64,000 nucleotides of DNA from positions 35,890-99,889 of the forward strand of contig JBDRFF010000020.1 in NCBI GenBank assembly GCA_043819095.1, written 5' to 3'. Shown here piece by piece: positions 1-41,068 of this stretch (the first letter of the stretch is position 1; every line of letters begins with the position of its first letter). A program made the translations under genes and the position numbers. The notes beneath the pieces are model-generated. The model ran no database searches and was not told where the DNA came from. It was given only the letters and a program-made list of their open reading frames with translations. This DNA comes from Candidatus Omnitrophota bacterium (lineage in GTDB: Bacteria; Omnitrophota; Gorgyraeia; VGKH01).

Positions 1-503
1 TATTTCTCTCCTGAAATCCTCTTACGATATCAACAGCAGTTTTGTTATCCGGGGCTGCACCTAATATAGCTGCGAAACCAGGAAGTCTTCCGTCGACTAA
101 CTGAATGCCTAAAGAACGAATTATCGTATCGGTGAAAAATCCATTACAATCTACTTGAGGCTCTTCATTATAAAGATAACGCAGAACCATAATAATCTCT
201 TCACAAAGTAACGTAGCAATCCCCGCATCTAATACTCCTCCTAAATAAGGCAACCAGATCTTATCCGATGGAACCTCAGGTAAAAGCGACCTAGCATGTT
301 CTAATATTTCTTTTGCGTCCTTTAAAGTCTTCGCCTCTTTTGCCATTAAAGCATTTGCCATCGGCAAATAAAAAGCTGTGCTTGGAAATTCAATTTTCTG
401 CGACTCGCTTTTCTCTTCAATAGCTTTATTGAGTTTGGATTCCGATTCCTTAAAAATCTGATGAGCGCCTCTAATTACAGCCTGAGCGACTATCTTAGAC
501 ATA
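1..503 (-). CDS. acsB: Acetyl-CoA synthase (CODH/ACS catalytic subunit AcsB), N-terminal fragment; gene continues beyond window start
   Basis: Manual reverse-strand translation from ATG at 503-501 gives MSKIVAQAVIRGAHQIF...TAFYLPMANALMAKEAKTLKDAKEIL...LPGFAAILGAAPDNKTAVDIVRGFQE. This aligns by eye with the Moorella-type AcsB N-terminus (TAYYLPV..., IPGEAIILGRAKDSKALAKIV). Not in the ORF track because it is truncated by the window edge. The start overlaps the stop of the upstream gene by 8 nt. Confidence 0.65.
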
Positions 504-1793
504 AGTCCTTTCTTCCTCTCTTACTAAATCTCTGATATCAGCGAAACTGAAGTTTTCATTTAATAATCTATCTTTAATATTGGTTATATCTATTTTTTCT
601 TTGATTAATTTTAAGAATACTCCGGACTGATTGATATTCCCAACCAAAACTGCTCCAACTAATCGATTCCCGGCTATAACTAATTTTTTATAAATCTCTA
701 AACCGGGAAAAGATTTTGATAAGATTTCTTGGTTTTCGCCTTCTTTATAAATCCCCATTGAGACAACCGGCAAATCAAAAAACTCAACTGAATTTAATCC
801 TAAAGAACCTTCGTATTTTATATTTTCACCAGCGATATTGCTTCCGGCGATTTTGCCTTGTTCAACTGCGTGCGGCCAAAGAGCATTGACTATTGGCTTA
901 TTTAATGTGATATCAAAAGTCTCGCAGACATCGCCTGCAGCGTAGATATTTGGAATATTTGTCTTCATGTTTTCATCAACACAAATTCCATCACTGATTT
1001 TTATCTCGGTCTCAGAAATTATATCAGTGTTGGGTTGAACACCTTTTGCTACAACCACAATCTGACAAGCAATAACTTTATTATTATCTAAACGCACTGC
1101 TTTAAGATCACCATTTCCGACTATTTCTGTGATGCTTCTTCCTGTCAGTATCTCAATTCCATTGTCTGATAATCTCTTCTGCACAAGTTGGGCTGCTTGC
1201 TTATCAACCACTTGAGATAAAACATAAGGCGATCTTATAATAACTTTTACATCCTTGCCTCTTTTTCTCAGACCATATGCAGCTTTTAATCCGATAAGTC
1301 CGCCTCCGGAAACACAGGCAGTATCTGCCATCGTCACTAATTGTAAAATGTCTTTAGTATCTTTTATAGTTCTAAAACCGAATACTCCTTTTTTCTTGAT
1401 TCCTTTTAATTCGGGAAATTTCGGGCTTGCGCCATTAGCCAAAAGAAGCGCATCATAATCAAGTTGTAATTTAGACGATTTTGATTTCTTATCTTCTTCT
1501 TTGTTCTCTGAAACATCTTCAGCTACAACACGATTTTTCTTAGGATCGACCCTCACTACCTTTGTGCCTAATTTAAGCTCTGCGTTCTGCTCTTTGAAGA
1601 ATTCATTGCTGCGATAAACTAACTTTTCTTCCGTCACTTTTCCGGCCAGAAAATCAGAGATAACGCATCGACAATAAGAAGGATAATCCTCATCGGATAA
1701 AACGATAATCTTTGATTCTTTATCCTTTTTTCTTATTGCCTCAACAGCGGCAACGCCTGCTGCTGAATCTCCGATAATGATTACTTGTTTCAT
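495..1793 (-). CDS. FAD/NAD(P)-binding pyridine nucleotide-disulfide family oxidoreductase (CooF-associated FNOR-like)
   Basis: N-terminal GxGxxG dinucleotide fold (IIGDSAAGVAAVEAI), a second Rossmann motif (VSGGGLIGLKAAYGL) and a GD motif (AAGDVCE) typical of NADH oxidase/CoA-disulfide reductase-like enzymes. Sits between cooF and acsB. Confidence 0.7.
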   Translation of the reverse strand: MKQVIIIGDSAAGVAAVEAIRKKDKESKIIVLSDEDYPSYCRCVISDFLAGKVTEEKLVYRSNEFFKEQNAELKLGTKVVRVDPKKNRVVAEDVSENKEEDKKSKSSKLQLDYDALLLANGASPKFPELKGIKKKGVFGFRTIKDTKDILQLVTMADTACVSGGGLIGLKAAYGLRKRGKDVKVIIRSPYVLSQVVDKQAAQLVQKRLSDNGIEILTGRSITEIVGNGDLKAVRLDNNKVIACQIVVVAKGVQPNTDIISETEIKISDGICVDENMKTNIPNIYAAGDVCETFDITLNKPIVNALWPHAVEQGKIAGSNIAGENIKYEGSLGLNSVEFFDLPVVSMGIYKEGENQEILSKSFPGLEIYKKLVIAGNRLVGAVLVGNINQSGVFLKLIKEKIDITNIKDRLLNENFSFADIRDLVREEERTYV

Positions 1794-1795
1794 AA

Positions 1796-1992
1796 TTATT
1801 GCTTTCTTTAATGAGCGCTTGACTTATGGAACAAAAGTGACATAAGTCAAATGCGCGAATTAACCCCCACTGTTTCGTTTTGGTTCGCTTTGCTTCACCA
1901 AAAGCGAAACAAAACGGTGGGGGCAAATTCAGCCAGACGACTTAGCTTCCTCCGACGATACGTCGGAATCGTTAAGTCGTGGCTTCATTTCC
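1796..1992. repeat. Modular nested-palindrome intergenic repeat element, copy A (H1 variant 2; H2 = cccccactgtttcg...cgaaacaaaacggtggggg; H3 degenerate)
   Basis: Shares left end ttaatgagcgc, H1 hairpin gcgcttgacttatgg/cataagtcaaatgcgc, linker gaattaacccc, linker ggggcaaattcagcca, H3 cgacttagcttcctccgacg-ata-cgtcggaatcgttaagtcg and right end gtggcttcattt with copies B-E. The cooF stop (1929) lies inside it. Confidence 0.7.
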
Positions 1993-2426
1993 TCTTCTTC
2001 TACCCAAAGAACTGCTTTAACCGGGCAAGCCTTTACACACTGCGGCTCGCCGATATCAGTACACAAATCACATCTAACAGGAATTTTTACTTTTTTATTC
2101 GGCCTGATAGCACCATAAGGACAAACCATTACGCACATCCAGCAACCTACGCATTTATCTTCATCGTATAAAATCTGACCGGTTTTCTCATCTTTTGATA
2201 TTGCCGCAGCCATACAAGCAGCTACACATTTGGGATCCTTACAATGCCTGCAGCTCATAGGATAATTTTTATCTTTAGAAAAGGTAATCTTTATGCGTGG
2301 TAAAGATTTATCCTTCTCCTTGATCATCTTTTCCAATTCTTTGGAGACCGAATGCGAAATAGCACAGGCAAGTTCACAGGATTTACAACCTAAACATTTC
2401 TCGACGTCAAAATAAATCTTTTTCAT
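1929..2426 (-). CDS. cooF: CooF-type 4Fe-4S ferredoxin (CO dehydrogenase iron-sulfur electron-transfer subunit)
   Basis: Multiple CxxCxxCxxxCP cluster motifs (CLGCKSCELAC, CVGCWMCVMVCPYGA, CDLC...CVKACP). Lies immediately downstream of cooS. Confidence 0.8.
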   Translation of the reverse strand: MKKIYFDVEKCLGCKSCELACAISHSVSKELEKMIKEKDKSLPRIKITFSKDKNYPMSCRHCKDPKCVAACMAAAISKDEKTGQILYDEDKCVGCWMCVMVCPYGAIRPNKKVKIPVRCDLCTDIGEPQCVKACPVKAVLWVEEEEMKPRLNDSDVSSEEAKSSG

Positions 2427-2445
2427 ATTATTTTGGTAATTTTTT

Positions 2446-2541
2446 AACGCAGATTATCGCAAATCTAACGCAGATACACACAGATTTTATCCTTATGGAC
2501 AATCTGCGACCATCTGCGTGCAATCCGCGAATATCTGCGTT
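2446..2541. promoter_or_regulatory. ~95-bp imperfect palindrome made of eight 8-mer (AACGCAGAT / ATCTGCGT-like) repeats at ~11-bp spacing, between cooS stop and cooF start
   Basis: Left arm: aacgcagat (2446), tcgcaaatc (2457), aacgcagat (2467), cacagattt (2479). Right arm in inverse orientation: aatctgcga (2501), catctgcgt (2511), aatccgcga (2522), atctgcgtt (2533). Symmetry centre near 2493. Confidence 0.5.
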
Positions 2542-2557
2542 CAAAAACTATTCCCAT

Positions 2558-4489
2558 TTATTTTTTTCCTGTTTTAACTGCCTCCTGATACATCATTGGC
2601 TGCAGTTTAAGCGCCTCACGCTTTTTATTTATATGATCAATCATCATTTTTGCTGCTTTTAAAGGATCTGCCTCAAATGCAAATTTTCCTCCGCAAATAG
2701 ACTCCATATCCTCAGTCAAAAATTTAGTTACATTTTGACTCCCTAAGACAGGCATTGCCCCGCCTAAAACTGTAAACACGCCTGAAGAAACAAAATAAAA
2801 TCCGATGCTTATTGCCTTTTCCGACATCCACTCTGGCGCTGCTCCGGCTGCGGGAAGATCTGAAATATCTTCACCAAGACCCCCTTCTTTCAAAACTTCA
2901 GTTGCTGCGATTAGAATTCGACTATTATCTACGCAAGAGCCCATATGTAATACAGGCGGAATACCTACTGCTTCGCAAATTTCTTTCAAACCTTTGCCTG
3001 CTGCTTCAAATGCTGCTTCTGGCTGTAACAATCCAGCCTTACCGCAAGCGATAGCAGAGCATCCTGTCGATAAAACAATCACATCATTTTTAAGTAATTC
3101 TTTGACCAAAGTCAGATGGCCAAAATCGTGAGTAATTTTAGGATTATTGCAACCCACAACTCCTGCGATACCACGAATCCTTCCGTTAATGATAGCTTCA
3201 TTTAAAGGCTTAAAGGTGTTAAGATATTTCCCACCTAAAATGCGCGAAACTATTTCAGTTGAAATCCCTGCAATTAAATCTTTCTTTTCTTTGGGAATAA
3301 AAACTCTGTTTTTATCTCTTTTCTTATAATTCTCGATTGCCTTTTTCACAATCGATTTCATTATATTTATGGCGTCGTGTTCATCAAAGTGGATAAATGT
3401 CACGCCGGGAAACTTTGCCTTTTCCGACGTGGTAATAATCTCAGTATGAAAACATTTGGCAACATCAATCAAACCCGGCATAATACACTGGATATCGACC
3501 ATCATCATTTCTACCGCGCCTGTGGCGATGGCTAATTCCTGTTGCAGGAAATTTCCTGCTAAAGGCACTTCATGACGCATCAGGACTTCATTTGCCGTAC
3601 AGCACATTCCGGCTAAATTTATTCCAGCTGCGCCTGCTTCTTTTGCCAATTTTATCATCTCCGGGTCTTTGACCACCTGGGCTGCTGCCTCAGGAAGAAG
3701 CGCTTCGTGGCCGTGAACAATAATATTAACCTGATCCTCTTTCAATACACCCAGATTAACCGTCCCTCGTATTGGTTCGGGAGTACGCAAAAGGATATCC
3801 TGGGCTTCGGTTGCAATCATCGAACCGCCCCAGCCATCCCCAAGACTTGTCCTCATTCCGTGCAAAATTATACTCTTATATTCATTATCCACTCCAATAT
3901 GAACCCTATGCATGGCTTCAACAATTTCTCTATCAACACCGCGAGGAATAATGCCTGCCTTTTTCCAAACCGCGATTCTCTTCTTAGGAGCGCGGACGAT
4001 AAATTTAAGCGGGCCTTCCTGCGCGCCAAAATCCTCTAAAAACTTATCGCCTAAATCCGCAGCAATATCTTCTTTGGAACGACCTTCAATTTTGATACCA
4101 TACATCTTGGCCATTTCCTTTAATTTATCTTCGTCTTGAATTTTATAATCGTGGATTTTGCCTTTGCCAACTAAATGAAGCGCGTGCGCAACGCCTCTTC
4201 CGTGGTCTGAATGCGCAGCAGCTCCACAGGCAATATGGCGAAGCAAATTTCGCGCGACAATTGTGTCTGCATCGGCGCCACAAACTCCACACTGTGTGCC
4301 TTCGCCAAATGGATCAATCCTACAAGGCCCAAGATAACAATTCGTACAACAAATCCCTAACTGCCCAAAACCGCACTGCGGTTGCATTTCTTCATGTCTG
4401 TCCCAAATTGTCTTAAAAGATTCGCCTTGAATCTTTTTTAAAACTTCTTGGGTTGCTGGATCAACCGATCGCTTAGTTACATCACTCAT
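2558..4489 (-). CDS. cooS: Anaerobic Ni-dependent carbon monoxide dehydrogenase catalytic subunit (CooS/AcsA)
   Basis: 643 aa. N-terminal CGFGQLGICCTNCYLGPCRI cluster B/D motif and overall CooS-like length. Strong SD (AGGAGG) 8 nt upstream on the minus strand. Confidence 0.9.
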   Translation of the reverse strand: MSDVTKRSVDPATQEVLKKIQGESFKTIWDRHEEMQPQCGFGQLGICCTNCYLGPCRIDPFGEGTQCGVCGADADTIVARNLLRHIACGAAAHSDHGRGVAHALHLVGKGKIHDYKIQDEDKLKEMAKMYGIKIEGRSKEDIAADLGDKFLEDFGAQEGPLKFIVRAPKKRIAVWKKAGIIPRGVDREIVEAMHRVHIGVDNEYKSIILHGMRTSLGDGWGGSMIATEAQDILLRTPEPIRGTVNLGVLKEDQVNIIVHGHEALLPEAAAQVVKDPEMIKLAKEAGAAGINLAGMCCTANEVLMRHEVPLAGNFLQQELAIATGAVEMMMVDIQCIMPGLIDVAKCFHTEIITTSEKAKFPGVTFIHFDEHDAINIMKSIVKKAIENYKKRDKNRVFIPKEKKDLIAGISTEIVSRILGGKYLNTFKPLNEAIINGRIRGIAGVVGCNNPKITHDFGHLTLVKELLKNDVIVLSTGCSAIACGKAGLLQPEAAFEAAGKGLKEICEAVGIPPVLHMGSCVDNSRILIAATEVLKEGGLGEDISDLPAAGAAPEWMSEKAISIGFYFVSSGVFTVLGGAMPVLGSQNVTKFLTEDMESICGGKFAFEADPLKAAKMMIDHINKKREALKLQPMMYQEAVKTGKK

Positions 4490-4668
4490 TAATTATTCCT
4501 CCTTCAATGACGTCATAATTTACGGAGTCCTAAGACGACGTAAATTATACGTCTGAAATGAACCCCACTTCTTGCTTTCGCAAGAAAGCAGCGGGGTAAA
4601 TTCAGCCAAACAACTTATGTTCCTCCGACGGTACGTCGGAGGAACATAAGTTGTGGCTTCATTTAAAG
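4490..4668. repeat. Modular nested-palindrome intergenic repeat element, copy B (most compact; perfect H3 palindrome)
   Basis: ccttcaatgacg left end; H1 gacgtcataatttacg/cgtaaattatacgtc; H2 ccccac..cttgctttcgcaagaaagcag..cgggg; H3 acaacttatgttcctccgacg-gta-cgtcggaggaacataagttgt (21-bp perfect arms); right end gtggcttcattt. Fills the entire metF-cooS gap. Its left end supplies the AGGAGG SD of cooS. Confidence 0.75.
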
Positions 4669-5538
4669 CCCTACAGCGTCTAAAATTAAAGGAACTTGTT
4701 TGTCCCAGCCCAACGGCATAAGGTGTATTCCCTGACACATGGAATTTAATTCCTTAATCAGACGCGCAGCTATCTCAACGCTCTTTTTTGGTCTATCTTC
4801 TTTGGAAACACTTTTCATTTCTTCTATCAAATTATCCGGGACATTTACTCCCGCGACATTTTCATTCATGAATTTTGCCATACCGGCAGATTTTAAAAGC
4901 ACGATTCCGGCCATAATCGGAACTTTAATATGTTTTACTTTATTAATAAAAGTTTCGAACTGTTTTATATCATAAACCGCCTGCGTCTGGAAAAATTCAG
5001 CCCCTGCGGCTACTTTTTGTTCCATTTTCATAATCTGCGGTTCAATAGGATCTGCGCCGGGATTTACCACCGCGCCTTTACAGAATTTCGGCGCCGGGCC
5101 TTGAAGATCATTACCAACCATATCCTTACCTGATTCCAATGTTTTAATAACTTCCAACAGCTGAACGCTTTCTAAATCAAACACAGGCTTTGCGTCGGGA
5201 TGATCTCCTAATGAGACATGATCACCGGTTAAAGCTAAAACATTATCAATTCCTAATGCCGCAGCTGATAATAAATCCGATTGGAGTGCTAAACGATTTC
5301 TATCCCGGCAGGTCATCTGAAATATCGGCTCGAGTCCTTTTTCCTTTAATAGACGACATACTGCCAACGAACCAAGACGCATTACAGAACTCTGCAGATC
5401 AGTTACGTTAATTGCATCAACACGGTCACGAATTAACTCGGCATCTCCTAATAATTCTTTAGTTTCGATACCTTTGGGCGGACCGATTTCAGAAGTTAAT
5501 AAAAATTTTCCTTGTTTTATTTTCTCTTTAAAAGTCAT
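4663..5538 (-). CDS. metF: Methylenetetrahydrofolate reductase (small MetF type)
   Basis: 291 aa. MTHFR fold signatures (LTGDHVSLGDHPDAKPVFDLESVQLL; AGAEFFQTQAVYD). Adjacent to folD. No MetV-like partner seen. Confidence 0.8.
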   Translation of the reverse strand: MTFKEKIKQGKFLLTSEIGPPKGIETKELLGDAELIRDRVDAINVTDLQSSVMRLGSLAVCRLLKEKGLEPIFQMTCRDRNRLALQSDLLSAAALGIDNVLALTGDHVSLGDHPDAKPVFDLESVQLLEVIKTLESGKDMVGNDLQGPAPKFCKGAVVNPGADPIEPQIMKMEQKVAAGAEFFQTQAVYDIKQFETFINKVKHIKVPIMAGIVLLKSAGMAKFMNENVAGVNVPDNLIEEMKSVSKEDRPKKSVEIAARLIKELNSMCQGIHLMPLGWDKQVPLILDAVGL

Positions 5539-6383
5539 TTGGCTTGAATCTTTGTTGCTTCAACTAAATTACGCATTAACATTGTGACGGTTAATGGCCC
5601 TACGCCGCCTGGAACCGGCGTGATATATGATGCACGTTTGGAAGCTTCGTCAAATTCTACGTCTCCCACGATTTTTCCTTCAACGCGATTTATTCCTACA
5701 TCGATTACAATTGCGCCATCCATTATCCATTCGCCCTTAATTAATCCGGCTTTTCCTACGGCTACAACTAAAATCTCGGCTTTGTTTACATGTTCGATTA
5801 ATTTTCCAGCTTCTGAAGTTCCAATATGACAGACTGTTGTGGTTGCAAATTTCTCTAATAATAAAAGGCTTAAAGGTTTCCCTACGATTTCGCTATGCCC
5901 TACGATAACTACTTCTTTTCCGTAAAGATTAACTCCAGTCGCCTCAATCAAAGCCATTGCTGCCGCTGCAGTACAAGGCGCAATTCTTGCTTTACCCATT
6001 AAAACTTTTCCCAGATTTTGCGGATGCATTCCTTCGATATCTTTATCGGGTGAAATAAAACTACTGATTGCCTTATAATCTATCTGCTTTGGAAGCGGCA
6101 TCTGAACGATGATTCCGTTGACATTAACATCATTATTTAATTTCTGAATAAAATCAATTAAGCCTGGCTGATTCGTATCAGCCGGCAATCTTTCTAAACT
6201 ATATTCAATTCCTAAATTGTCTGCTGTCTTTTTCTGTGATTTGCAATAGGCTTCTGCGCCGACATTTTCACCGATGATGATGCTTGCTAAAACCGGCTTT
6301 TTGCCCAAGCTTGAAATTTCTTTCTTTAATGCCTCTTTGATTCCAGAAGCAATAATTTTTCCTTCAAGTAATTTGGCGGCCAT
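5535..6383 (-). CDS. folD: Bifunctional 5,10-methylene-THF dehydrogenase / 5,10-methenyl-THF cyclohydrolase
   Basis: 282 aa; MAAKLLEGKIIASGIKEALK N-terminus; NAD(P) site VVIVGHSEIVGKPL; PVPGGVGPLT C-terminal motif. Confidence 0.9.
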   Translation of the reverse strand: MAAKLLEGKIIASGIKEALKKEISSLGKKPVLASIIIGENVGAEAYCKSQKKTADNLGIEYSLERLPADTNQPGLIDFIQKLNNDVNVNGIIVQMPLPKQIDYKAISSFISPDKDIEGMHPQNLGKVLMGKARIAPCTAAAAMALIEATGVNLYGKEVVIVGHSEIVGKPLSLLLLEKFATTTVCHIGTSEAGKLIEHVNKAEILVVAVGKAGLIKGEWIMDGAIVIDVGINRVEGKIVGDVEFDEASKRASYITPVPGGVGPLTVTMLMRNLVEATKIQAK

Positions 6384-6932
6384 TTATATCCTCCAAGATT
6401 TAAATTGCTGCTTAATTCTTGCGACGAATTTCTTATCTTTTATATACGGAAGATTGATTTTCACGTTTACGATTGCAGATTTGATTGCAGCGCGAAGTAA
6501 GCTGTTTGCGACATGAACATCGCTGATTAAATACTTATTTCCTTTTTTTGCTAACACCGGACAAAGATTCAATGCTTGAAAACTTAATTCGGTAATCTTT
6601 ACGGGAACAATAGTTGCTTCTTTTAAGGATTTTTGATGTAAGGCGAAAGAGATCTTTTTGTTTCGAGCAACCTTATTATAAGTTATAACATCTAAATCAA
6701 CTAATTCAAGCAACTTTTTTCTTATTTTTCCCGATTCTTTTAATGACTTTTTGATATCTTTTTGGAATTTCTTATATTTTGGTTTGCCTATGGTAAAATT
6801 TGCTACCATAGAAAGCAATGCCGCGGCTGTTGCGCCAACAAGCGCTGCAGCTGAACCGCCTCCGGGAGCCGGCTTTCTTGCCGCTAAATCATCAAGATAT
6901 TCCCTTATACTTTTATTAGCATATTTTCTCAT
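6384..6932 (-). CDS. fchA: Cyclodeaminase/cyclohydrolase family protein (methenyl-THF cyclohydrolase FchA-like)
   Basis: 182 aa; N-terminal LDDLAARKPAPGGGSAAALVGATAAALLSMVANFT is the FtcD/FchA cyclodeaminase signature. Sits between fhs and folD. Confidence 0.75.
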   Translation of the reverse strand: MRKYANKSIREYLDDLAARKPAPGGGSAAALVGATAAALLSMVANFTIGKPKYKKFQKDIKKSLKESGKIRKKLLELVDLDVITYNKVARNKKISFALHQKSLKEATIVPVKITELSFQALNLCPVLAKKGNKYLISDVHVANSLLRAAIKSAIVNVKINLPYIKDKKFVARIKQQFKSWRI

Positions 6933-7255
6933 TTTATAAATTCCTCCACGTCTATGCCTCTCTTCTGGACATCATCAACCATTTTCTCCATTCGCTTTCG
7001 TTCTTCTTTGTCTTTTAACAATTTAAGAAATCTTTTTTCCATCTCCGGATTAACCTTCTCTTGTTGTTTGAACATCGACAAAAATAATACAGATAGAAAT
7101 ACTGCGAACAAAACAAGAACTGCGTCGCGAAAAAATTTACTTACTCTTATTCTTAGATGATGAGGATGTGGTTCGGCTTCTTTTTGAGGATGACTTTCGT
7201 CTTTCTTAAGTAAACTCTCCTCTTCTCTCCTAAAATAATCCTCTAATTTGTCCAT
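6929..7255 (-). CDS. Hypothetical small membrane protein (one TM helix, highly charged flanks)
   Basis: 108 aa ORF overlapping fhs (26 nt) and fchA (4 nt). Central hydrophobic segment AVLVLFAVFLSVLFLSMF flanked by K/E-rich regions. No recognisable family. Confidence 0.35.
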   Translation of the reverse strand: MDKLEDYFRREEESLLKKDESHPQKEAEPHPHHLRIRVSKFFRDAVLVLFAVFLSVLFLSMFKQQEKVNPEMEKRFLKLLKDKEERKRMEKMVDDVQKRGIDVEEFIK

Positions 7256-8921
7256 TGTCGTCGATATCTATTTTTTCCCCAGCCGGATGAGTTGGAAGCC
7301 CCGGCATCGTACGCATCTCTCCGCAAAGCACGTAAAGAAAACCAGCTCCCACAGAAGCCTTAATATCCCTTACGGGAAGAATAAAATCTTCAGGCCTGCC
7401 CTTTAGTTTAGGGTCATGTGAAAGTGAAAGATGAGTCTTAGCCATACAGATGGGGAACTTATTATATTTCAATTTTGTATAAAGCCTTACCTTTTCTTCT
7501 GCGCGCACTGAATAGAAAACGCTTTTTGCCCCATATATTTTCTTTGCGATTGTCTCTATCTTATCTTTAATTTTCATAGAATCAGGATAAAGATATTTAA
7601 AATGGCTCTTCTTATTAGCTGCTTTTGTAACGGCTCTGGCTAAATCTGTGCCGCCTTTTGAACCCTTTGCCCAGACTTCGCTTAGCGCAACATCATCGGC
7701 ACCGGCTTGCAAAGCTATTCTTTTTACCAGGTCTATCTCTTTTTTAGTATCTGTTGTAAATTTATTTACAGCCACAACGCAAGGAATCCCGAATTGTTTT
7801 ATATTCTCAATTTGCTTTTCTAAATTTGAGCTGCCTTCTCTTAATGCCTCAAGATTTTCCGATATAAGACCTTTACTCAAAGGCTTGCCGGCAACGACAT
7901 TAAATCTTCCGCTGTGCATCTTTAATGCCCGAATAGTACAAACCAGAACCGCTGCATCGGGTTTAATACCGCTATTTCTACACTTTATATTAAAGAATTT
8001 CTCCGCCCCGCAATCTGCGCCAAAGCCGCTTTCGGTGACAACAAAATCTGCTAATTTTACAGCTATCCTGTCTGCTAAAATAGAACTATTGCCGTGGGCG
8101 ATATTAGCAAACGGCCCTGCATGTACGAATACGGGGGTATTTTCTAACGTCTGAATAAGCGTTGGCTTTATCGCGTCCTTTAATAAAACAGCCATAGCTC
8201 CGGCGACTTTCAAGTCTTCTGCGGTAACTAACTTACCATTTTTTGTCATTGCTACAACTATACGCCCGATCCTTTTCCTTAAATCAGATAAATTCTCAGT
8301 AAGCGCCAATATAGCCATAATTTCACTGGCTACAGATATATCAAATCCTCCCTGACGAGGAATGCCGTCCTGTTTAGAGCCCAGACCAACAGTAATGTAT
8401 CTTAATGACCTGTCGCTCACATCAACTACCCTCTTCCAGAAAATCTTATGCATATCAAAATTAAATTTATGGCGATAGATTGCATTATCCAAGAAAGCTG
8501 CGCAAAGATTATGCGCCAGGCTGACCGCATGAACATCTCCTGTGAAATGGAGATTAAAATCTTCCATTGGGATTACTTGGGAATAACCGCCTCCGGCAGC
8601 TCCGCCCTTTATGCCGAATACCGGACCTAAAGAAGGCTGCCTAATACAGCTGATAGTTTTTTTGCCGATGCGATTAAGAGCCATTGACAACCCTATAGTG
8701 GTGACAGTTTTACCTTCACCAAGAGGCGTAGGTGTAATTGCGGTCACATCTATATATTTTGCATTCTTTTTATTCTTATTCTTTTTGATTAGATCCAAAG
8801 ACACCTTTGCCTTATAGTTGCCGTAAAACTCAAGATCACTATCCTTTATGCCAATCTTCTTGGCAATTTGCTTGATGGGCTTAATCTTTGCGTTTTGAGC
8901 AATTTCTAAATCTGAAAGCAT
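7230..8921 (-). CDS. fhs: Formate--tetrahydrofolate ligase
   Basis: 563 aa; canonical FTHFS N-terminus MLSDLEIAQNAKIKPI and P-loop region PTPLGEGKTVTTIGL. SD GAAGGAGG directly upstream. Confidence 0.9.
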   Translation of the reverse strand: MLSDLEIAQNAKIKPIKQIAKKIGIKDSDLEFYGNYKAKVSLDLIKKNKNKKNAKYIDVTAITPTPLGEGKTVTTIGLSMALNRIGKKTISCIRQPSLGPVFGIKGGAAGGGYSQVIPMEDFNLHFTGDVHAVSLAHNLCAAFLDNAIYRHKFNFDMHKIFWKRVVDVSDRSLRYITVGLGSKQDGIPRQGGFDISVASEIMAILALTENLSDLRKRIGRIVVAMTKNGKLVTAEDLKVAGAMAVLLKDAIKPTLIQTLENTPVFVHAGPFANIAHGNSSILADRIAVKLADFVVTESGFGADCGAEKFFNIKCRNSGIKPDAAVLVCTIRALKMHSGRFNVVAGKPLSKGLISENLEALREGSSNLEKQIENIKQFGIPCVVAVNKFTTDTKKEIDLVKRIALQAGADDVALSEVWAKGSKGGTDLARAVTKAANKKSHFKYLYPDSMKIKDKIETIAKKIYGAKSVFYSVRAEEKVRLYTKLKYNKFPICMAKTHLSLSHDPKLKGRPEDFILPVRDIKASVGAGFLYVLCGEMRTMPGLPTHPAGEKIDIDDNGQIRGLF

Positions 8922-9208
8922 TTGACCTCCTTCAATGACGACATAATTTACGGAGTTTTCAAACGACGTAAATTATTCGTCGAAATTGAACCCCCCACCA
9001 CTTTTAGTAATCAGGCGTTCTTTTATATAAAAACGTTTATCGTCTTTTCAAACCCACCATCTTTAATTCCACAGTTGTTTCTAAAAGTGGTGGGGGGTCA
9101 AATTTCCCTCGACGTTGCTCGGGACTCCTTCGAGGGATCCTGAGCGAAGTCGAAGGGCAGACAAACAATTTATGTCATTGCATTCCATAACTTGTGTCTT
9201 CATTTGAT
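8916..9208. repeat. Modular nested-palindrome intergenic repeat element, copy C (long H2 variant plus extra hairpin module, degenerate 3' end)
   Basis: Left end cctccttcaatgacg (supplies fhs SD). H1 gacgacataatttacgg/cgtaaattattcgtc. H2 17-bp perfect stem ccccccaccacttttag (8991-9007) / ctaaaagtggtgggggg (9081-9097). Extra hairpin ccctcgacg...cgtcgaggg (9106-9136). Ends ...gtgtcttcatttg next to the yraN stop. Confidence 0.7.
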
Positions 9209-9592
9209 CTAATATAGATAATGATTATCTAATAAAAACGCGTTTTTTATAATATCGACCTTATTTTCTCCGGATGAATTATGCATTACTGAAACAACAT
9301 CAAACCTTGCTGACTTCTTTAGTAATCTATTATTTTTTAAATATGATAAAGCCAATTGAGACAGCTTATGTTGTTTGCTCTTGGTGATTGACTCTTGAGG
9401 TGAGCCTTTTTCCTGCGTGGTTCTGGTTTTTACCTCCACAAAACAAATGCAATTCTTATCTTTTGCAACTATATCGATTTCTCCAAGGTTAGTTCTAAAA
9501 TTCTTTTCTAAAATCTTATAGCCATTGCTTTTTAAGAAATTGATTGCCGAATCTTCACCGGCAAGACCTAAATCTATTTTCTGTCTAGACAT
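9209..9592 (-). CDS. yraN: YraN family (UPF0102) endonuclease
   Basis: 127 aa; GEDSAINFLKSNGYKILEKNFR...GEIDIVAKD...FVEVKTR motif typical of YraN. Confidence 0.8.
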   Translation of the reverse strand: MSRQKIDLGLAGEDSAINFLKSNGYKILEKNFRTNLGEIDIVAKDKNCICFVEVKTRTTQEKGSPQESITKSKQHKLSQLALSYLKNNRLLKKSARFDVVSVMHNSSGENKVDIIKNAFLLDNHYLY

Positions 9593-10218
9593 TTTACGGG
9601 ACTAAAGCTTTTTCGATGGAATACCGACGGACCATGTCTCTTTAACGCTTTTAGATGTCTTTTTGTGCCGTAACCTTTATGTTTGGAGAAACCATACTGC
9701 GGATGAATCCTATCAAGTAAAAGCATCATTCTATCGCGGGTGAACTTCGCCACGATTGAGGCGCAGGCAATGGATAAACTTTTCGAATCCCCTTTAATTA
9801 TATTTTTAGTATAACAAGGCACATCTAGATCAAGTATATTACCGTCTACTAAAACACAAACTTGTTTTTTTAATCGATTTCTCTTGAAGCCTTTTTTCTT
9901 CTCTAAATGCAAAATCAAATCCAAGATTGCATTACGCATCGCAAGGCGCGTTGCCTCTAAGATATTTATTTGATCGATATGGTCTTCGCTGACAACGCCT
10001 AAACCGAAGATCGATTTCGTGATTATTTCGCGAAATGCCTTCTCCCGTTGCATAGCGGTGAGTTTTTTTGAATCATCGATACGATTTCTAAAACGCTTAT
10101 CTACTAATAAAACTGCCGAAGCTACCACAGGACCTGCCAGTGGACCACGACCAGCTTCGTCAACCCCGATGATGAATTTAAAACCTTTTTTCTTGGCTTT
10201 ATTTTCGTGATAAAGCAA
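9574..10218 (-). CDS. rnhB: Ribonuclease HII
   Basis: 214 aa; IIGVDEAGRGPLAGPVVASAVLL catalytic motif. Confidence 0.9.
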   Translation of the reverse strand: MLYHENKAKKKGFKFIIGVDEAGRGPLAGPVVASAVLLVDKRFRNRIDDSKKLTAMQREKAFREIITKSIFGLGVVSEDHIDQINILEATRLAMRNAILDLILHLEKKKGFKRNRLKKQVCVLVDGNILDLDVPCYTKNIIKGDSKSLSIACASIVAKFTRDRMMLLLDRIHPQYGFSKHKGYGTKRHLKALKRHGPSVFHRKSFSPVKCLDRK

Positions 10219-10563
10219 TTACTCTGCCTTTACCTTTGTGGCCTGTTTTCCGATTCTTTCTCTTAAATAATAAAGCTTATTGCGCCTAGCTTTTCCTTTT
10301 CGGGAAACCGTGATTTTTTCAATTGTCGGAGAATGTATTGGGAATGTTCTTTCAACTCCTTCGCCAAAAGATATCTTTCTTACCGTAAAGGTAGCCTTGA
10401 TGCTTTTTCCGTGCCGGCGTATAACCACGCCTTCAAAATCATGAATTCGAAATTTACCTTCGGCCTCCGGAACTTTGACCGAAACCTTTACTGTATCCCC
10501 GGCCTTAAAATCTGGGATATCTTTTTTCAGTTGCTCTGCTTCAATCTCTTCTATTCGTTTCAT
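10219..10563 (-). CDS. rplS: 50S ribosomal protein L19
   Basis: 114 aa; [13 protein letters not shown]...[17 protein letters not shown] signature. Conserved trmD-rplS neighbourhood. Confidence 0.9.
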
Positions 10564-10577
10564 TTTAACCTCCGTTT

Positions 10578-12400
<1,823 letters not shown>

Positions 12401-13492
12401 TTAAAGTATTAACATTGCGTCGCCGTAACTGTAAAATCGATATTTTTTTTCGATCGCCTCTTGGTAGGCGCGCTTTATTAAATCCGTGCCGGCGAATGCG
12501 CAAACTAACATAAATAACGTCGTGCGCGGTAGATGAAAATTCGTAATAAGAACATCGACTAATTTTGGTTTATATCCTGGATAAACGAACAAATCTGTTG
12601 TGCCTTTTATGGATTTTTGGGGTGGATCGCAGACTCTAGATTCCAGGTTATCCGACTTCTTTCCGTGGCTTCTTACCTCCAACCCAAAATCTGCAATCCC
12701 TGACCCCCTTACAATTGTTTCTACAACCCTAAAGCTTGTAGTACCGACAGCAATAATTATTCTTCCGCTAGATTTGGCTTTTTGGATATCTTTTACGGTT
12801 TTAGCCGCCACCTCAAACTCTTCGCTATGCATCTTGTGCTTAGCGATGTTTTCTTCTTTTACTGGATTAAACGTTGCGTAATTGACATGGAGCGTGACTT
12901 TATTAATTTTTATTCCGGAGTTTTTTATTTTTGAAAGCGAACGCTTTGTAAAATGAAGCCCAGCTGTAGGGCTTGCTACTGATCCCTTATGTTTTGCATA
13001 AACTGTCTGATAATGTGTTTTATCAATTGCTTCTGGCTGCCTCTTCACATAAGGCGGAAGTGGAATCTGGCCTAATTTGAATAATCGAGATTGATTCTTT
13101 GTATTGAATCGAACGATTTTTTGCAGTGGGTCTTTGAGCTGCGCCGTAATTTTACCTCCATTAAAAAGTATTTTTTCATTTAATTTCAATCTCTTCAATG
13201 GCTTAATCAAGCTTTTATAAGAATATCCGTCGGATAAACGTTTCAATAAAAATATTTCAACACTGCCGCCCGACGCACGTCTACCCATAAGCCTTGCTGG
13301 GACCACCTTGCTATCGTTTAAAATCATCAGGCTTTTTTTGGGAAGATACTTTAAAATATTGAAGAATTTATCATGATAGATTTCCTTGGAAGCTCTATCG
13401 ATAACCAAAAGCCGCGCTTGGTCTCTTTTCTTTAATGGGTATTGAGCGATTAACTCTCTAGGAAGGTCGTAGTCGAATTCTCGTAACTTCAT
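12401..13492 (-). CDS. queA: S-adenosylmethionine:tRNA ribosyltransferase-isomerase
   Basis: 363 aa; MKLREFDYDLPRELIAQYP...RLLV N-terminus and VGTTS motif. Confidence 0.9.
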   Translation of the reverse strand: MKLREFDYDLPRELIAQYPLKKRDQARLLVIDRASKEIYHDKFFNILKYLPKKSLMILNDSKVVPARLMGRRASGGSVEIFLLKRLSDGYSYKSLIKPLKRLKLNEKILFNGGKITAQLKDPLQKIVRFNTKNQSRLFKLGQIPLPPYVKRQPEAIDKTHYQTVYAKHKGSVASPTAGLHFTKRSLSKIKNSGIKINKVTLHVNYATFNPVKEENIAKHKMHSEEFEVAAKTVKDIQKAKSSGRIIIAVGTTSFRVVETIVRGSGIADFGLEVRSHGKKSDNLESRVCDPPQKSIKGTTDLFVYPGYKPKLVDVLITNFHLPRTTLFMLVCAFAGTDLIKRAYQEAIEKKYRFYSYGDAMLIL

Positions 13493-14646
13493 TTTGAAAT
13501 TTCAGAACCAGGATAGTAATATTTTAATATCTCGTCGTATTTAAAACCACAATCAGACATAGATTTTGCACCCCATTGGCACAAGCCAACGCCGTGACCC
13601 CAGCCTTTACCAATAAAATCAGCGTAATATCCACGCATCTTAACTGTAAAATTAGTGCTTTTGATAATATTTGGCCCAACAATCATGCGAAATTCTTTTC
13701 CAGAAAGATAAATTTTACTGTCGCGACGGTCAATAATCTCTAATCTATCTATTCTTCCTGAATCGTTTATTTCTAGAATATTTATTTCTTTTATCAACCC
13801 AATTTTCTTGCCCGCTTTTATAAGCTTAACCTGGATATCCTTAAGTCTCAAATTTTCCTTCCATCGAATATGCGGAGATTTACTGTCAAAATCGCATTCC
13901 ACGCCTTTTAACGGCGGCAGATCAATATTCCAAAGCCGCGAGGCATCCTCAGTATGTCCAGCGCAAGTAGCATGGTAATACGTAGGAAAAATCTCTCCTT
14001 CGAAAGTCAGAAGTTCTCCTAGCGTCCGGTTTACGGCCATGTTTGTGCGGTATTTCTCAGACGTCCTTCCACCGTAGACCTGGGAATAAATATCACTGGT
14101 TAGATCATAATCTCTGGCTTCATTGACCTTTGCCTGGTAAAGCGCGTATGTCCTAGCCGCAACCGCCTGTGCCTTTATGGCCTCAAGAGGCCATTTATGC
14201 GAAACCTCATGATACAGGACTCCACGGATATAACTCTCGACATCAATATGATTCACCACCAAAAGCGTCATATCCTGCTGACGCACGATATCAACCTGGC
14301 CACGAAAACGGCGCTTATTTACAAATATGGTCGCATCTTTCTTTGGAACGATTTTTATGCCAAAAATCTTAAAATATGAATACCTCCCTATTTTTATTCC
14401 ATAATTAGTCGGTGTCACGATTGAAGTCTTCAAATTCCTATATTCAGCAAGAGGTTCATTGGTATTCAAAGAATAAATGCTAAAAGGCCCCTTTATGATA
14501 AGTCTTAAAGATAGCTTATCTTTGATTATCGCCACGCGCACGTATAAATTAGATTTAGTCGGCGAGGGCGGTTGCGAAAAGCCCAAAAGAGAAACCGCGC
14601 AGATTAGAATTATTAAAATTCTTGTTATCTTTTTTTCCATAACCAT
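13489..14646 (-). CDS. SpoIID/LytB domain protein (secreted; signal peptide)
   Basis: 385 aa; N-terminal hydrophobic leader; YHEVSHKWPLEAIKAQAVAARTYAL and CAGHTEDAS motifs of the SpoIID/LytB amidase-enhancer family. Confidence 0.7.
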   Translation of the reverse strand: MVMEKKITRILIILICAVSLLGFSQPPSPTKSNLYVRVAIIKDKLSLRLIIKGPFSIYSLNTNEPLAEYRNLKTSIVTPTNYGIKIGRYSYFKIFGIKIVPKKDATIFVNKRRFRGQVDIVRQQDMTLLVVNHIDVESYIRGVLYHEVSHKWPLEAIKAQAVAARTYALYQAKVNEARDYDLTSDIYSQVYGGRTSEKYRTNMAVNRTLGELLTFEGEIFPTYYHATCAGHTEDASRLWNIDLPPLKGVECDFDSKSPHIRWKENLRLKDIQVKLIKAGKKIGLIKEINILEINDSGRIDRLEIIDRRDSKIYLSGKEFRMIVGPNIIKSTNFTVKMRGYYADFIGKGWGHGVGLCQWGAKSMSDCGFKYDEILKYYYPGSEISK

Positions 14647-14849
14647 AAAACCATAGTCATGATAATGCTAATTAATATACATGTTGTTATGGGAAAATAA
14701 AATGAGGAATTCTTCTTCTGGATATAGATATCCCCCGGGAGTTTTCCCAACCAGGGAATTTTCCCTCCCAGAAGAAAAGTCAGTCCCAATATAACTAAAA
14801 CCACACCGACTAAAATTAATATTTTTCCCACAATATTAAGTTCGCTCAT
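14625..14849 (-). CDS. Small DUF2905-like membrane protein
   Basis: 74 aa, two hydrophobic helices, KIPWLGKLPGDIYIQKKN motif resembling DUF2905. Start codon abuts repeat element D. Confidence 0.4.
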   Translation of the reverse strand: MSELNIVGKILILVGVVLVILGLTFLLGGKIPWLGKLPGDIYIQKKNSSFYFPITTCILISIIMTMVLWLWKKR

Positions 14850-15047
14850 ATCTCTCGATTTCTAATGAGCGCACAATTTACGTCGCTATTGCTCCGTAAA
14901 TTGTTTGCGCGAATTAGACCCCACACCTTTTATCTATTCAAACTATCTTAAAAACTCCCACCAAAAAATATGAATACTAAAAAAGTGTGGGGTCAAATTC
15001 AACCATACGACTTATGTTCACTTCGTTCCATAAGTCGTGGCTTCATT
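14850..15047. repeat. Modular nested-palindrome intergenic repeat element, copy D (hybrid H1; H2 = ccccacac...gtgtgggg)
   Basis: ctaatgagcgc left end; H1 gcgcacaatttacg/cgtaaattgtttgcgc; gaattagacccc linker; ggggtcaaattcaacca linker; H3 cgacttatg..cataagtcg; right end gtggcttcatttgag. The queH stop (15018) lies inside. Confidence 0.7.
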
Positions 15048-15608
15048 TGAGAATATACATCCGCAATATTTTTGGCAATACAGGCCTGCATCTTTTGCTT
15101 TTTTATGCGCGTCGCGAAAACCGCTTCGAAAATCTTCGAATACAAACTTTATTCCTGTATCTTTTGAAATCTCTTCTCCGATTTTCTTTATTCTCTCGAT
15201 ATCCTGATACGGGCTGACCAAAAGCGTAGTCGAGAAACTCTCCATACCTTTATCTTTGGCAAATTCCGCAGTTTTCTTTAAACGGAGCTTCCAGCAGATA
15301 TGGCATCTCTGAGGCGCTTTCTCGTTATTTGCGATTACTCGAAAAAAATCTTCTGGACTGTATTTCTCTTCGCAATAAACAGAAATGCTATTCGGCTTTG
15401 AATAATCCTCAACAGCCTTCTTTCGATTTTCATATTCAAACAATGGTTGTATGTTGGGATTATAGAAAAAACCCGCCACTTCGTAGTCCTGTTTTTTTAA
15501 AATTTCATAAGGATAAATCAGACATGGCGCGCAGCAGGTATGAAGCAATAACTTCATTCTAAGTTTAAAATAAATCCTTTTGTTCTTGTTTTTTATTGGC
15601 GAGACCAA
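15018..15608 (-). CDS. queH: Epoxyqueuosine reductase QueH (DUF208)
   Basis: 196 aa; LLLHTCCAPC...CW...CGC cysteine pattern of DUF208/QueH. The last ~10 codons and stop lie inside repeat element D. Confidence 0.7.
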   Translation of the reverse strand: MVSPIKNKNKRIYFKLRMKLLLHTCCAPCLIYPYEILKKQDYEVAGFFYNPNIQPLFEYENRKKAVEDYSKPNSISVYCEEKYSPEDFFRVIANNEKAPQRCHICWKLRLKKTAEFAKDKGMESFSTTLLVSPYQDIERIKKIGEEISKDTGIKFVFEDFRSGFRDAHKKAKDAGLYCQKYCGCIFSNEATTYGTK

Positions 15609-29556: not shown

Positions 29557-29582
29557 GTCTTACATCTAAACGCTCTTACTAA

Positions 29583-29606
29583 AATGGGGGATATTTATCC
29601 CCCATT
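29583..29606 (-). terminator. Candidate intrinsic terminator downstream of the 29674..30015 gene
   Basis: Perfect 10-bp stem aatgggggat/atcccccatt with 4-nt loop. On the minus strand it is followed by UUUUAGUAAG (short U-tract). Confidence 0.45.
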
Positions 29607-29673
29607 CTTGAAAAAAATTACTCGCGCCTTTAAAAAATCTAGTAATAAGATAATAATTTCTTAAACAATAAGC

Positions 29674-36310: not shown

Positions 36311-36314
36311 TGTT

Positions 36315-36530
36315 CTAACGACACCTGGCTTTTACTTCTTGTCTTAAATCCTCAAGCTTTTGAAGGATTTGATTTTGATTCTCTGATATCTTATTTAATT
36401 TGTCAATAATCCTAGCCTCAGCACTTACTTTTAATTCTGTATCTTGAGCTGTAGTATTCCTAAAATAAAAAGTGACCGAGAATGCTAAGAATACAAACAA
36501 TAGGACCAAAAGCAAAAAGAATCTTTTCAT
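36315..36530 (-). CDS. Small hypothetical membrane-anchored coiled-coil protein
   Basis: 71 aa; N-terminal TM (FFLLLVLLFVFLAFSVTF) then coiled-coil-like tail. Weak evidence for being a real gene. Confidence 0.3.
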   Translation of the reverse strand: MKRFFLLLVLLFVFLAFSVTFYFRNTTAQDTELKVSAEARIIDKLNKISENQNQILQKLEDLRQEVKARCR

Positions 36531-36548
36531 TACGCCCCCCCTCTATGA

Positions 36549-40804: not shown

Positions 40805-41068
40805 ATTAATCCTTTAATGAGCGCTTGGCTTATGGAATCCGCCAAAGTTCTGTGGCGGATGACATAAGTCAACTGCGCGAATTGAACCCCCCACCACTTT
40901 TAGCAAGGGCCTTCATTTTATGTAGGACGTTTATCCTTCTTTTCAAACCCACCAAATTTAATTCCACCGTTATTTCTAAAAGTGGTGGGGGGTAAGTTCG
41001 AACATATAACTTATGTTCCTCCGACGCCTCGTCGGAGTCCATAAGTTATGTCCTCACTTACATTCTGA
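40805..41068. repeat. Modular nested-palindrome intergenic repeat element, copy E (H1 variant 2 with nested ccgcca/tggcgg hairpin; long H2 variant as in copy C)
   Basis: ttaatgagcgc left end; H1 gcgcttggcttatgg...cataagtcaactgcgc; H2 stem ccccccaccacttttag (40887-40903) / ctaaaagtggtgggggg (40976-40992) with internal cttttcaaacccacca..tttaattccac shared with copy C; H3 ataacttatgttcctccgacg-cct-cgtcggagtccataagttat. The lptB stop lies at its right end and the tig start at its left end. Confidence 0.7.

Follow-up and report, generated by a model that had tools for sequence, protein, structure and literature searches.

The window studied here, a stretch of 64,000 nucleotides (nt) of contig JBDRFF010000020.1 from a Candidatus Omnitrophota bacterium, carries nested-palindrome elements of one architecture in five intergenic gaps (1796-1992, 4490-4668, 8916-9208, 14850-15047 and 40805-41068, labelled A to E). 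These elements raise the question of whether they are DNA repeats that are copied within genomes or RNA structures that serve the adjacent genes. The original prediction, made from the sequence of the window, had allowed both: a repeat resembling repetitive extragenic palindromes (REPs) and bacterial interspersed mosaic elements (BIMEs) or transposable elements of the miniature inverted-repeat type (MITEs), and equally a cis-regulatory or small RNA (sRNA) family. Our analysis supports the REP/BIME- or MITE-like option, as the elements belong to a real modular repeat family that has defined termini and had not been annotated. They are best explained, with a probability of about 0.6, as lineage-wide mosaic palindromes similar to BIMEs and to REPINs (inverted REP doublets), copied at the DNA level by a putative hairpin-recognising enzyme, confined to stop-start junctions in one polarity, and probably also acting as stabilising or processing hairpins in mRNA.

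All five elements are present in these gaps and can be aligned with each other end to end except for a variable middle. They are connected by the direct-repeat families D2-D4, D6 and D7 of a repeat finder, and the 18-nt end motif AAATGAAGCCACRACTTA, with up to three mismatches allowed, occurs in four of the five and at one chance site, where 0.19 occurrences are expected. The parts originally listed for the elements, namely conserved ends, a first hairpin (H1) in two flavours, a C-run/G-run hairpin (H2) with a variable insert, linkers and a palindromic third hairpin (H3), were correct. All three stem-loops exist, but the covariance model (CM) shows that H1 and H3 are not different hairpins but a single module, here called M, in inverted orientation. 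This model (R1), run over the 64 kb with filters off, gave ten strong matches of 40-79 bits, two per element and none elsewhere; each element is matched at its upstream end on the minus strand and at its downstream end on the plus strand. At this sensitivity the predicted 'at least five' copies are exactly five. Copy B folds with -87.7 kcal/mol on the gene strand (z = -11.9 relative to shuffled sequence) and with -82.1 kcal/mol on the opposite strand (z = -12.2). Altogether the five elements account for roughly 1.5-2% of the window and for five of its eight intergenic gaps longer than 100 nt. Their parts are as follows, with open reading frame abbreviated as ORF and carbon monoxide dehydrogenase as CODH.

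Element A, between genes for a 4Fe-4S ferredoxin and a pyridine-nucleotide oxidoreductase (Pfam)
1923-1992, minus strand: stop-side M (H3 of the original prediction), CM R1 58.7 bits; the ferredoxin ORF 1929-2426 (ORF list, Pfam) runs through it and ends at the TGA of GGCTGAATTT
1865-1922, minus strand: central H2, CCCCCAC...GTGGGGG
1807-1864, plus strand: start-side M, inverted (H1 of the original prediction), CM R1 57.5 bits; the oxidoreductase ATG lies 13 nt beyond it
Element B, between genes for MTHFR and CODH (Pfam)
4596-4666, minus strand: stop-side M with an extended, fully paired apical stem, CM 62.3 bits; the MTHFR stop codon TAA (4663-4665) overlaps its first bases
4563-4595, minus strand: short H2, CCCCGCTGCTTTCTTGCGAAAGCAAGAAGTGGGG
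4503-4562, plus strand: start-side M, inverted, CM 41.0 bits; GGAGG directly beyond it, then the CODH ATG at 4489
Element C, between a UPF0102/YraN-family gene and the FTHFS gene (Pfam)
9151-9207, minus strand: stop-side M, CM 42.1 bits; the YraN-family gene ends with TAG 3 nt upstream of it
8991-9150, minus strand: centre with a long H2, CCCCCCACCAC...GTGGTGGGGGG, whose interior is 82% identical to that of element E (family D4), and an extra nested hairpin, CCCTTCGACTTCGCTCAGG...CGTCGAGGG, at about 9100-9150
8931-8990, plus strand: start-side M, inverted, CM 52.7 bits; GGAGG directly beyond it, then the FTHFS ATG at 8921
Element D, between the QueH gene (Pfam) and a small membrane-protein ORF
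14993-15050, minus strand: stop-side M, of the five the nearest to the family consensus, CM 78.6 bits; the QueH ORF enters it by 10 codons, and locus L110 has an M at the same position
14919-14992, minus strand: H2, CCCCACAC...GTGTGGGG
14861-14918, plus strand: start-side M, inverted, CM 48.2 bits; the small membrane-protein ORF begins 11 nt beyond it
Element E, between genes for an ABC ATPase and trigger factor (Pfam)
40992-41061, minus strand: stop-side M, AAGTGAGGAC variant, CM 58.4 bits; the ABC ATPase stop codon TAA (41058-41060) lies inside it
40887-40991, minus strand: long H2 of the same family as the H2 of element C
40813-40886, plus strand: start-side M, inverted, with a nested CCGCCA...TGGCGG mini-hairpin in its loop, CM 40.5 bits; the trigger factor ATG lies 8 nt beyond it

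The common orientation predicted for all copies was borne out, as were the GGAGG directly beyond copies B and C and the closeness of the downstream start, with an ATG 8-13 nt past the end of the element in all five cases. The gene pairs named in the original prediction are correct by Pfam but had been listed in the wrong order. The elements do lie between a stop and a start, with the refinement that the stop is at or inside the element in A, B, D and E and 3 nt upstream of it in C.

Across the family an element consists of M, H2 and an inverted M and measures 130-400 nt. M itself is an imperfect palindrome of ~58 nt with the consensus 5'-TY AAAT-GA-AG(C/A)C-AC-RACTTA-NN-GA-AY-GAA-RT-GA(A)-NN-TAAGTYGT-(n)T-G(G/T)CT-GA-ATTT-RA; one copy is on the gene strand and a second, slightly different copy is inverted on the other strand. 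Read along the gene strand, elements open with (T/C)AAATGAAG(C/A)CAC and close with G(C)CTCATTRA. The stop-side type of M is characterised by AAATGAAG(C/A)CAC, or by AAGTGAGGAC in element E, and the start-side type, on its own strand, by TAATGAGCGC or CAATGACGAC. Over all loci, pairs of M are convergent in 46 cases, divergent in two and tandem in one, and the convergent doublets hold 92 of the 166 modules first analysed.

M is structurally constrained. In an alignment of 62 distinct copies from other genomes 94% of the stem cells are paired, compared with 18-36% when the 3' partner columns are slid by 1-3 positions; double changes occur in 12 of the 22 stem pairs, and the compensatory cells number 166 versus 59.5 ± 6.1 in shuffles. 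The stem extends into the end of the upstream gene, since the two bases preceding AAATGA co-vary with the two that follow ATTT (TC/GA, TT/AA, GT/AC, TG/CA) and position -1 of M pairs with the base after ATTT. Between the terminal Y and the R of TCATTRA no co-variation was seen, as judged by eye. Two conserved internal loops consist of tandem G·A/A·G mismatches, one at the base (5'-UGAA/UGAA) and one (GA...GA) next to the Y-GAA-R apical loop, and these mismatches are retained on the module's own strand in 142 of 150 aligned modules. For the own strand a greater stability is predicted than for its complement, both as RNA (-21.8 vs -14.9 and -24.4 vs -20.2 kcal/mol) and as DNA. A hammerhead or other ribozyme and a tRNA-like cloverleaf, suggested by the three helices and the CUGA/GAA motifs, were rejected, as Rfam was silent and covariation favours local hairpins; a small ORF starting from the conserved ATGAAG was rejected as well, as its peptides vary in length and sequence between copies.

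Three features of M indicate a constraint at the level of DNA. The first is that modules on opposite strands each keep the G·A mismatches of their own strand. Secondly, structures selected solely in the transcript usually show an excess of G·U over A·C, and such an excess is missing from the M stems, which are ~95% Watson-Crick with own-strand counts of G·T versus A·C of 26 vs 35 in stop-side and 9 vs 5 in start-side modules. The third is the apical loop: C-GAA-G with sheared G·A is a classic motif of very stable DNA mini-hairpins.

The spacer between the two modules is a hairpin in its own right. H2 is a long perfect stem of 12-16 base pairs (bp) in an ACCC...GGGT frame with a loop of 4 to ~240 nt, and a closed hairpin is predicted for 40 of the 47 H2 segments found in full elements. 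A handful of stem families recur between genomes and the H2 types are interchangeable. At two junctions an element is present in both genomes compared but its H2 cassette differs, namely at the QueH end (window vs L110) and between MTHFR and CODH (window vs L116). The H2 of element A (window 1864-1924), loop included, is 98% identical over 61 nt to L079:7697-7757, from an Omnitrophica WOR_2 MAG (metagenome-assembled genome) that is otherwise without megablast-level similarity to the window and in which the flanking M arms differ. This match suggests that H2 cassettes may move between genomes or be very strongly constrained. Extra small palindromes are nested in some loops, such as those of element C (~9100-9150) and of the start-side M of element E. 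A second family of mini-palindromes, 20 nt long (CCTGYCTGYCGGCAGRCAGG), was noted in seven copies in the loci examined, two of them nested in M loops; its sites include L025, L047, L049, L096 and L117:9910-9935.

The family is not local but abundant in many Omnitrophota-type genomes. An exact-pattern scan with one genome per species found at least 115 loci, mostly in Omnitrophota MAGs. About 30 of the matches listed are chance matches in other phyla, chiefly at ATG-AAG-ACA gene starts, and none of these has a CM match. The remaining matches listed belong to about 37 assemblies, of which 26 bear the label Candidatus Omnitrophota or Omnitrophica, nine are third-party-annotation (TPA) bins under a Planctomycetia or Planctomycetales label that could not be checked, one is labelled 'bacterium' and one 'Clostridia' (a weak match). 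At E <= 1e-4 the CM found at least 166 M modules in 81 sources. The two closest relatives of the window (L116 and L117, 44 kb, chosen irrespective of the element) contain six modules, and 65 metagenome loci with CODH homologues of at most 65% identity (~760 kb, other lineages) contain none. In sequence not picked for the element, i.e. the window, L116 and L117, the density is about 140-160 modules per Mb. Housekeeping proteins common to these MAGs are ~50% identical and the stop-side M DNA of different loci about 77%, the latter figure being inflated because the seeds were chosen with the 18-nt motif. In eight viral contigs the 18-nt pattern occurs by chance but the CM has no match, and carriage by phages was rejected on this ground.

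The original prediction did not recognise the sequence as a known element, and this holds. A search of the whole window against Rfam, on both strands, gave nothing at gathering thresholds nor at E <= 1, and hence no match to its riboswitches, ribozymes, leaders or sRNAs; tRNA and tmRNA genes were likewise not found in the window. BLAST of two elements against plasmid and phage collections gave no match, and the literature searched, including a 2026 preprint on 176 complete genomes (bioRxiv 10.64898/2026.06.07.730766), contained nothing on intergenic palindromes in Omnitrophota. Taken beyond the window, a covariance model finds further copies in plenty and with strong covariation. The family is apparently an undescribed short DNA repeat.

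The elements are closely fitted to the genes on both sides. With a fuzzy motif, 72 of 94 stop-side modules have a same-strand ORF that ends at the module. The last base of the stop codon is at +2 (TAA) in 18 cases, at +6 (TGA of AAATGA) in 19 and at +19 (TAG or TAA of ACTTAG) in seven, and the stop-side M therefore has a stop for all three frames. Within the window, the TAA of M serves as the stop at B and E, the gene before C ends 3 nt ahead of the element, and at A and D the ORFs read into the hairpin, so that the predicted proteins carry element-encoded tails. Several upstream ORFs enter M by 5-25 codons, and by 10-25 codons in the stop-side modules at window 1929-1992 and 15018-15050 and at L065:3469-3528, giving tails such as ...EEEEMKPRLNDSDVSSEEAKSSG on the ferredoxin and ...SNEATTYGTK on QueH, which are likely annotation noise or short neutral extensions. 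M of the TGAAG type occurs 66 times at an ORF stop and five times at an ORF start; M of the TGAGC type is typically preceded, on its own strand, by CCTCC, the complement of the Shine-Dalgarno sequence (SD).

Among the 47 full elements, 38 lie between the end of a co-directional upstream ORF and the start of a downstream ORF, versus six of 47 in the reversed control, and the downstream start is within 25 nt in 38 of the 47. An SD-like motif immediately follows ...CTCATTRA in ~23 of them. In ~10 of 47 an ATG without an SD stands 1-3 nt past ...CTCATTRAA (e.g. CTCATTGAAtATGAAG; L026, L020, L015, L068, L095 and others). The SD is unpaired in the predicted fold of copy B, the sole copy folded with its flank. 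Inside C and E, the two elements scanned, a consensus scan found no promoter-like site and no terminator-like site was found. A promoter in the long H2 of these elements was rejected accordingly, and so was an intrinsic terminator, there being no T-run after any hairpin. The neighbouring genes are unrelated housekeeping genes, e.g. for histidine kinases, T2SS/T4P ATPases, ABC transporters, ETF, RF-1, formyltransferase and DXS.

Comparison with close relatives shows that single copies come and go. The metagenome contigs L116 and L117 are collinear with window positions 1-14,500 at 70-83% DNA identity, and their CODH proteins are 93% and 83% identical, respectively, to that of the window. Element C is missing in both, where the TAA of the YraN-family gene is followed by GGGGG, 4-7 nt and the FTHFS ATG. 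Element A is missing in L117, where the ferredoxin and oxidoreductase genes overlap by ATGA. Conversely, L116 has a full element between the oxidoreductase gene and the next gene, where the genes of the window and L117 overlap by 8 nt, and the overlap sequence TATGTC is found on both sides of this element. In L117 a full element also occupies a junction that measures 25 nt in the window (10566-10591). Association with a gene family is not kept: in the close relatives the element is absent before the FTHFS and oxidoreductase genes and present at other junctions. Further filled/empty pairs involve L095 and L083 and occur among L065, L097 and L100. Altogether filled and empty junctions in syntenic relatives were found at no fewer than eight sites, and elements are therefore gained and lost. 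These comparisons imply that individual insertions turn over fast while the family consensus is old, which, by analogy, is the pattern described for REP/REPIN systems.

Other repeats were observed at the same kind of site. A different, AT-rich long palindrome, AAAGTAAAAAGTCAAAAG...CTTTTGACTTTTTACTTT (L116:12390-12520 and 9860-9990; L117:9850-9985), sits at the ferredoxin/oxidoreductase and MTHFR/CODH junctions of the close relatives, and it seems that palindromic repeats in general land at the gene junctions of these genomes. At L116:9610-9860 a 16-nt direct duplication, GTTGGGACAAATTAGT, surrounds a partial element with H2 and the start-side M only and repeats the 3' end of the MTHFR gene; this looks like a recombination scar left by exchange with another allele.

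We propose that a trans-acting, lineage-conserved enzyme would copy the elements at the DNA level. Its substrate on each strand would be the M hairpin in folded form, including the sheared G·A pairs and the C-GAA-G loop, by analogy with the action of REP-associated tyrosine transposases (RAYTs), i.e. HUH nucleases, on REPs. The elements could persist in tightly packed operons by bringing their own stop codons and by leaving or duplicating the ribosome-binding site. In polycistronic mRNA their very stable hairpins would probably be exonuclease barriers or processing sites that uncouple neighbouring cistrons, and the fixed polarity could stem from this secondary role.

Several points weigh against this proposal. 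Covariation does not separate an RNA hairpin from a DNA hairpin, and the seed copies were picked with the 18-nt motif, which makes the conservation of that arm look too high. Strict gene polarity is not a trait of REPs or REPINs and suggests a constraint at the level of RNA or translation, possibly the main cause of the conservation. Together with the built-in stop and SD it means that translation at least limits which insertions survive, which counts against a purely selfish DNA element. No RAYT and no IS200 or IS608 TnpA was found by tblastn in 1.7 Mb of genome fragments, a weak test with approximate queries. No protein family is enriched beside the elements: all-against-all clustering of 543 ORFs from 78 loci yielded housekeeping families only. 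Finally, longest-common-substring and in-register tests revealed no consistent target-site duplication. Anecdotal flanking duplications are AGGAGGT in L057 and L064, AAGAAAAGTAA in L026 and, in L116, TATGTC; should these be genuine, they would be a hint that insertion takes place in or beside the ribosome-binding site.

Of the known elements, REPINs and BIMEs, which occur in Pseudomonas and Escherichia coli and are linked to RAYTs, come nearest. In REPINs, which are inverted REP doublets with a spacer, hairpins form in single-stranded DNA or mRNA, compensatory changes are common and a 'clover' fold is an alternative (PMC3116915). The M elements share the two inverted imperfect palindromes around a folding spacer (PMC3116915; PMC3733652), the strand-specific asymmetries kept by each palindrome, the common compensatory changes and the possible choice between a 'clover' and a long-hairpin fold. 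They also share two slightly different paired module types, as in Y and Z REPs, and many extragenic copies in a family that persists while single copies turn over. REP units, however, by definition measure 20-40 nt and carry an unpaired tag, GTAG or CGTC, at one end (PMC3733652), whereas M is ~58 nt long, lacks such a tag and has paired ends in its consensus TCAAATGAAGCCACAACTTACGGAACGAAGTGAACGTAAGTTGTATGGCTGAATTTGA, a difference to be added to the points against our proposal. In M elements, moreover, the spacer consists of interchangeable hairpins with 12-16-bp stems, the polarity is strict with a stop codon and an SD built into the ends, and the range of the family is a candidate phylum instead of a genus, with no RAYT in the fragments searched. 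Since the narrow REP definition fails on size and tag and no RAYT was found, we regard the M family as working like a REPIN without calling it one.

Other repeat families are less similar. BOX of Streptococcus pneumoniae (boxA-boxB(n)-boxC) is likewise an intergenic mosaic with conserved ends, a variable middle, very stable predicted hairpins and no encoded protein, but its ends are not inverted copies of one hairpin, it is not tied to stop and start codons, and there is no sequence similarity. The Correia elements of Neisseria (NEMIS/CREE) are about 100-160 nt long with inverted ends, are often co-transcribed and form hairpins that can be processed in mRNA. They duplicate a TA target, lie in either orientation and have simple 26-nt inverted repeats, in contrast to M elements, which show no consistent duplication, a fixed polarity and self-folding ends. 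Rickettsia palindromic elements (RPEs) can also enter reading frames, but they lie inside genes and become, translated in frame, a segment of the peptide, whereas M elements replace only C-terminal tails and supply the stop. The ends of IS200/IS605 insertion sequences and their PATE derivatives have subterminal imperfect hairpins recognised as single-stranded DNA, no target duplication and a fixed orientation to a short target. However, IS608-type hairpins are both on the same strand, while M modules are on opposite strands; no conserved target of 4-5 nt was seen outside the M hairpin, and no TnpA was found by tblastn with approximate queries.

A different account, which appears somewhat unlikely, takes the element as an RNA module of operon punctuation whose primary, selected function lies in polycistronic mRNA, its spread through the genome being secondary and due to recombination between copies. 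Its hairpins would end upstream translation cleanly, block 3'-to-5' and 5'-end-dependent decay or direct endonucleolytic processing, and present a free SD. This agrees with the strict gene polarity, the stop codon in the first hairpin arm and the GGAGG at a fixed distance past the last, the unpaired SD predicted for copy B, the great stability of the element (z about -12) and a consensus kept between genomes whose shared proteins are only ~50% identical. REPs of E. coli stabilise upstream mRNA, and Liang, Rudd and Deutscher reportedly found in 2015 that the upstream gene's translation is affected by REPs at most about 15 nt away from a stop codon. Such an account is at odds with the start-side M, which keeps its G·A on the antisense strand, where the mRNA has U·C/C·U, and with the missing excess of G·U over A·C on the transcribed strand. 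Orthologous junctions of close relatives also work without the element, often with overlapping genes, and ~10 of 47 elements precede an ATG that has no SD.

The two ideas can be combined in an Omnitrophota-wide system in which a putative dedicated enzyme, recognising the M hairpin with its G·A mismatches on either DNA strand, would place the doublet exactly at ribosome-binding sites or at stop-start junctions, in one polarity and with the SD duplicated or replaced. The cell would then use the elements to punctuate very long single-strand operons. We consider this unlikely. Within it, punctuation might mean processing, stabilisation and uncoupling of cistrons, and SD-less initiation right after the last hairpin.

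Very doubtful is a classical MITE, i.e. an internally deleted derivative of a DDE-type insertion sequence that is mobilised via terminal inverted repeats and leaves a fixed target-site duplication. The inverted termini TYAA(A)TGA(A)GC / GC.TCATTRA, the size of 130-400 nt, the presence/absence polymorphism between related genomes and a few flanking duplications of 6-11 nt would fit. Yet matches of at least 6 nt numbered 20 against 13.2 ± 2.8, and the best in-register offset (z about 3) had 2.8 of 8 matches vs 2.5 expected. Furthermore, the supposed terminal repeats are whole 58-nt self-folding hairpins with conserved strand-specific mismatches, the orientation is fixed relative to genes, and the loci examined (1.7 Mb, fragments) contain no full-length parent or transposase.

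The cis-regulatory option of the original prediction, as a gene-specific leader, riboswitch or independent sRNA family, is highly improbable despite the position resembling a 5' untranslated region, the three conserved stem-loops and the covariation. The genes downstream have no functional relation to one another (e.g. those for CODH, FTHFS, trigger factor, the oxidoreductase, histidine kinases, RF-1 or ABC transporters), and the element is absent before the same genes in relatives with CODH 93% and 83% identical, their orthologous junctions being empty. Nor does this option agree with the lack of a promoter or terminator in C or E, the free SD of copy B, the outer hairpins on opposite strands, the lack of a G·U over A·C excess or the lack of an Rfam match. 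Site-specific recombination sites marking mobile gene cassettes, e.g. integron attC-like or Xer/dif-like, are hardly credible: imperfect inverted repeats with strand-specific extrahelical or mismatched bases, same-orientation genes and a variable centre recall them, but there is no integrase among the neighbour genes, RYYYAAC/GTTRRRY boxes are missing, the three-hairpin architecture is far larger than attC, and only the element comes and goes, since the flanking core-metabolism genes stay in conserved synteny.

Some features of the window stand apart from the family. All gene-like ORFs of at least 80 amino acids in window 1-64000 are on the minus strand, mostly overlapping or less than 30 nt apart; this co-directional gene array is unusually long, and the GC skew of the plus strand is negative throughout. 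The gap between the CODH and ferredoxin genes (2427-2557) contains another repeat, with CGCAGAT / ATCTGCG units, which is unrelated to M; a similar array was seen in L037 (GCACACAGAT/ATCTGTGTG). The sequence AATGGGGGATAAATATCCCCCATTTT (29585-29615, minus strand) resembles an ordinary intrinsic terminator, and no second one was found in the gaps read (2427-2557, 14647-14860, 29557-29673 and 36311-36548) nor in the two scanned regions.

Omnitrophota are a widespread phylum known almost wholly from MAGs, and to our knowledge there is no description of their non-coding DNA. Many short MAG contigs end in or at an element (L002, L004, L005, L013, L022, L033, L047), and short-read assemblies of Omnitrophota are therefore apparently broken by the repeat. 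Gene calls are corrupted as well, since upstream ORFs gain false C-terminal tails. On the other side, the repeat provides a compact lineage-specific DNA marker for binning and taxonomy. With this family the REP/REPIN concept reaches a distant phylum, in a strictly polar form with its own stop codons and ribosome-binding site, and its natural filled and empty alleles make the question of whether such repeats are selfish or functional testable. As for the predicted enzyme partner, a hairpin-specific single-strand nuclease or recombinase would itself be worth attention. If insertion is indeed precise at ribosome-binding sites or stop-start junctions and the cell uses the elements as punctuation, this would amount to targeted, expression-neutral transposition and to a phylum-specific layer of operon mRNA organisation.

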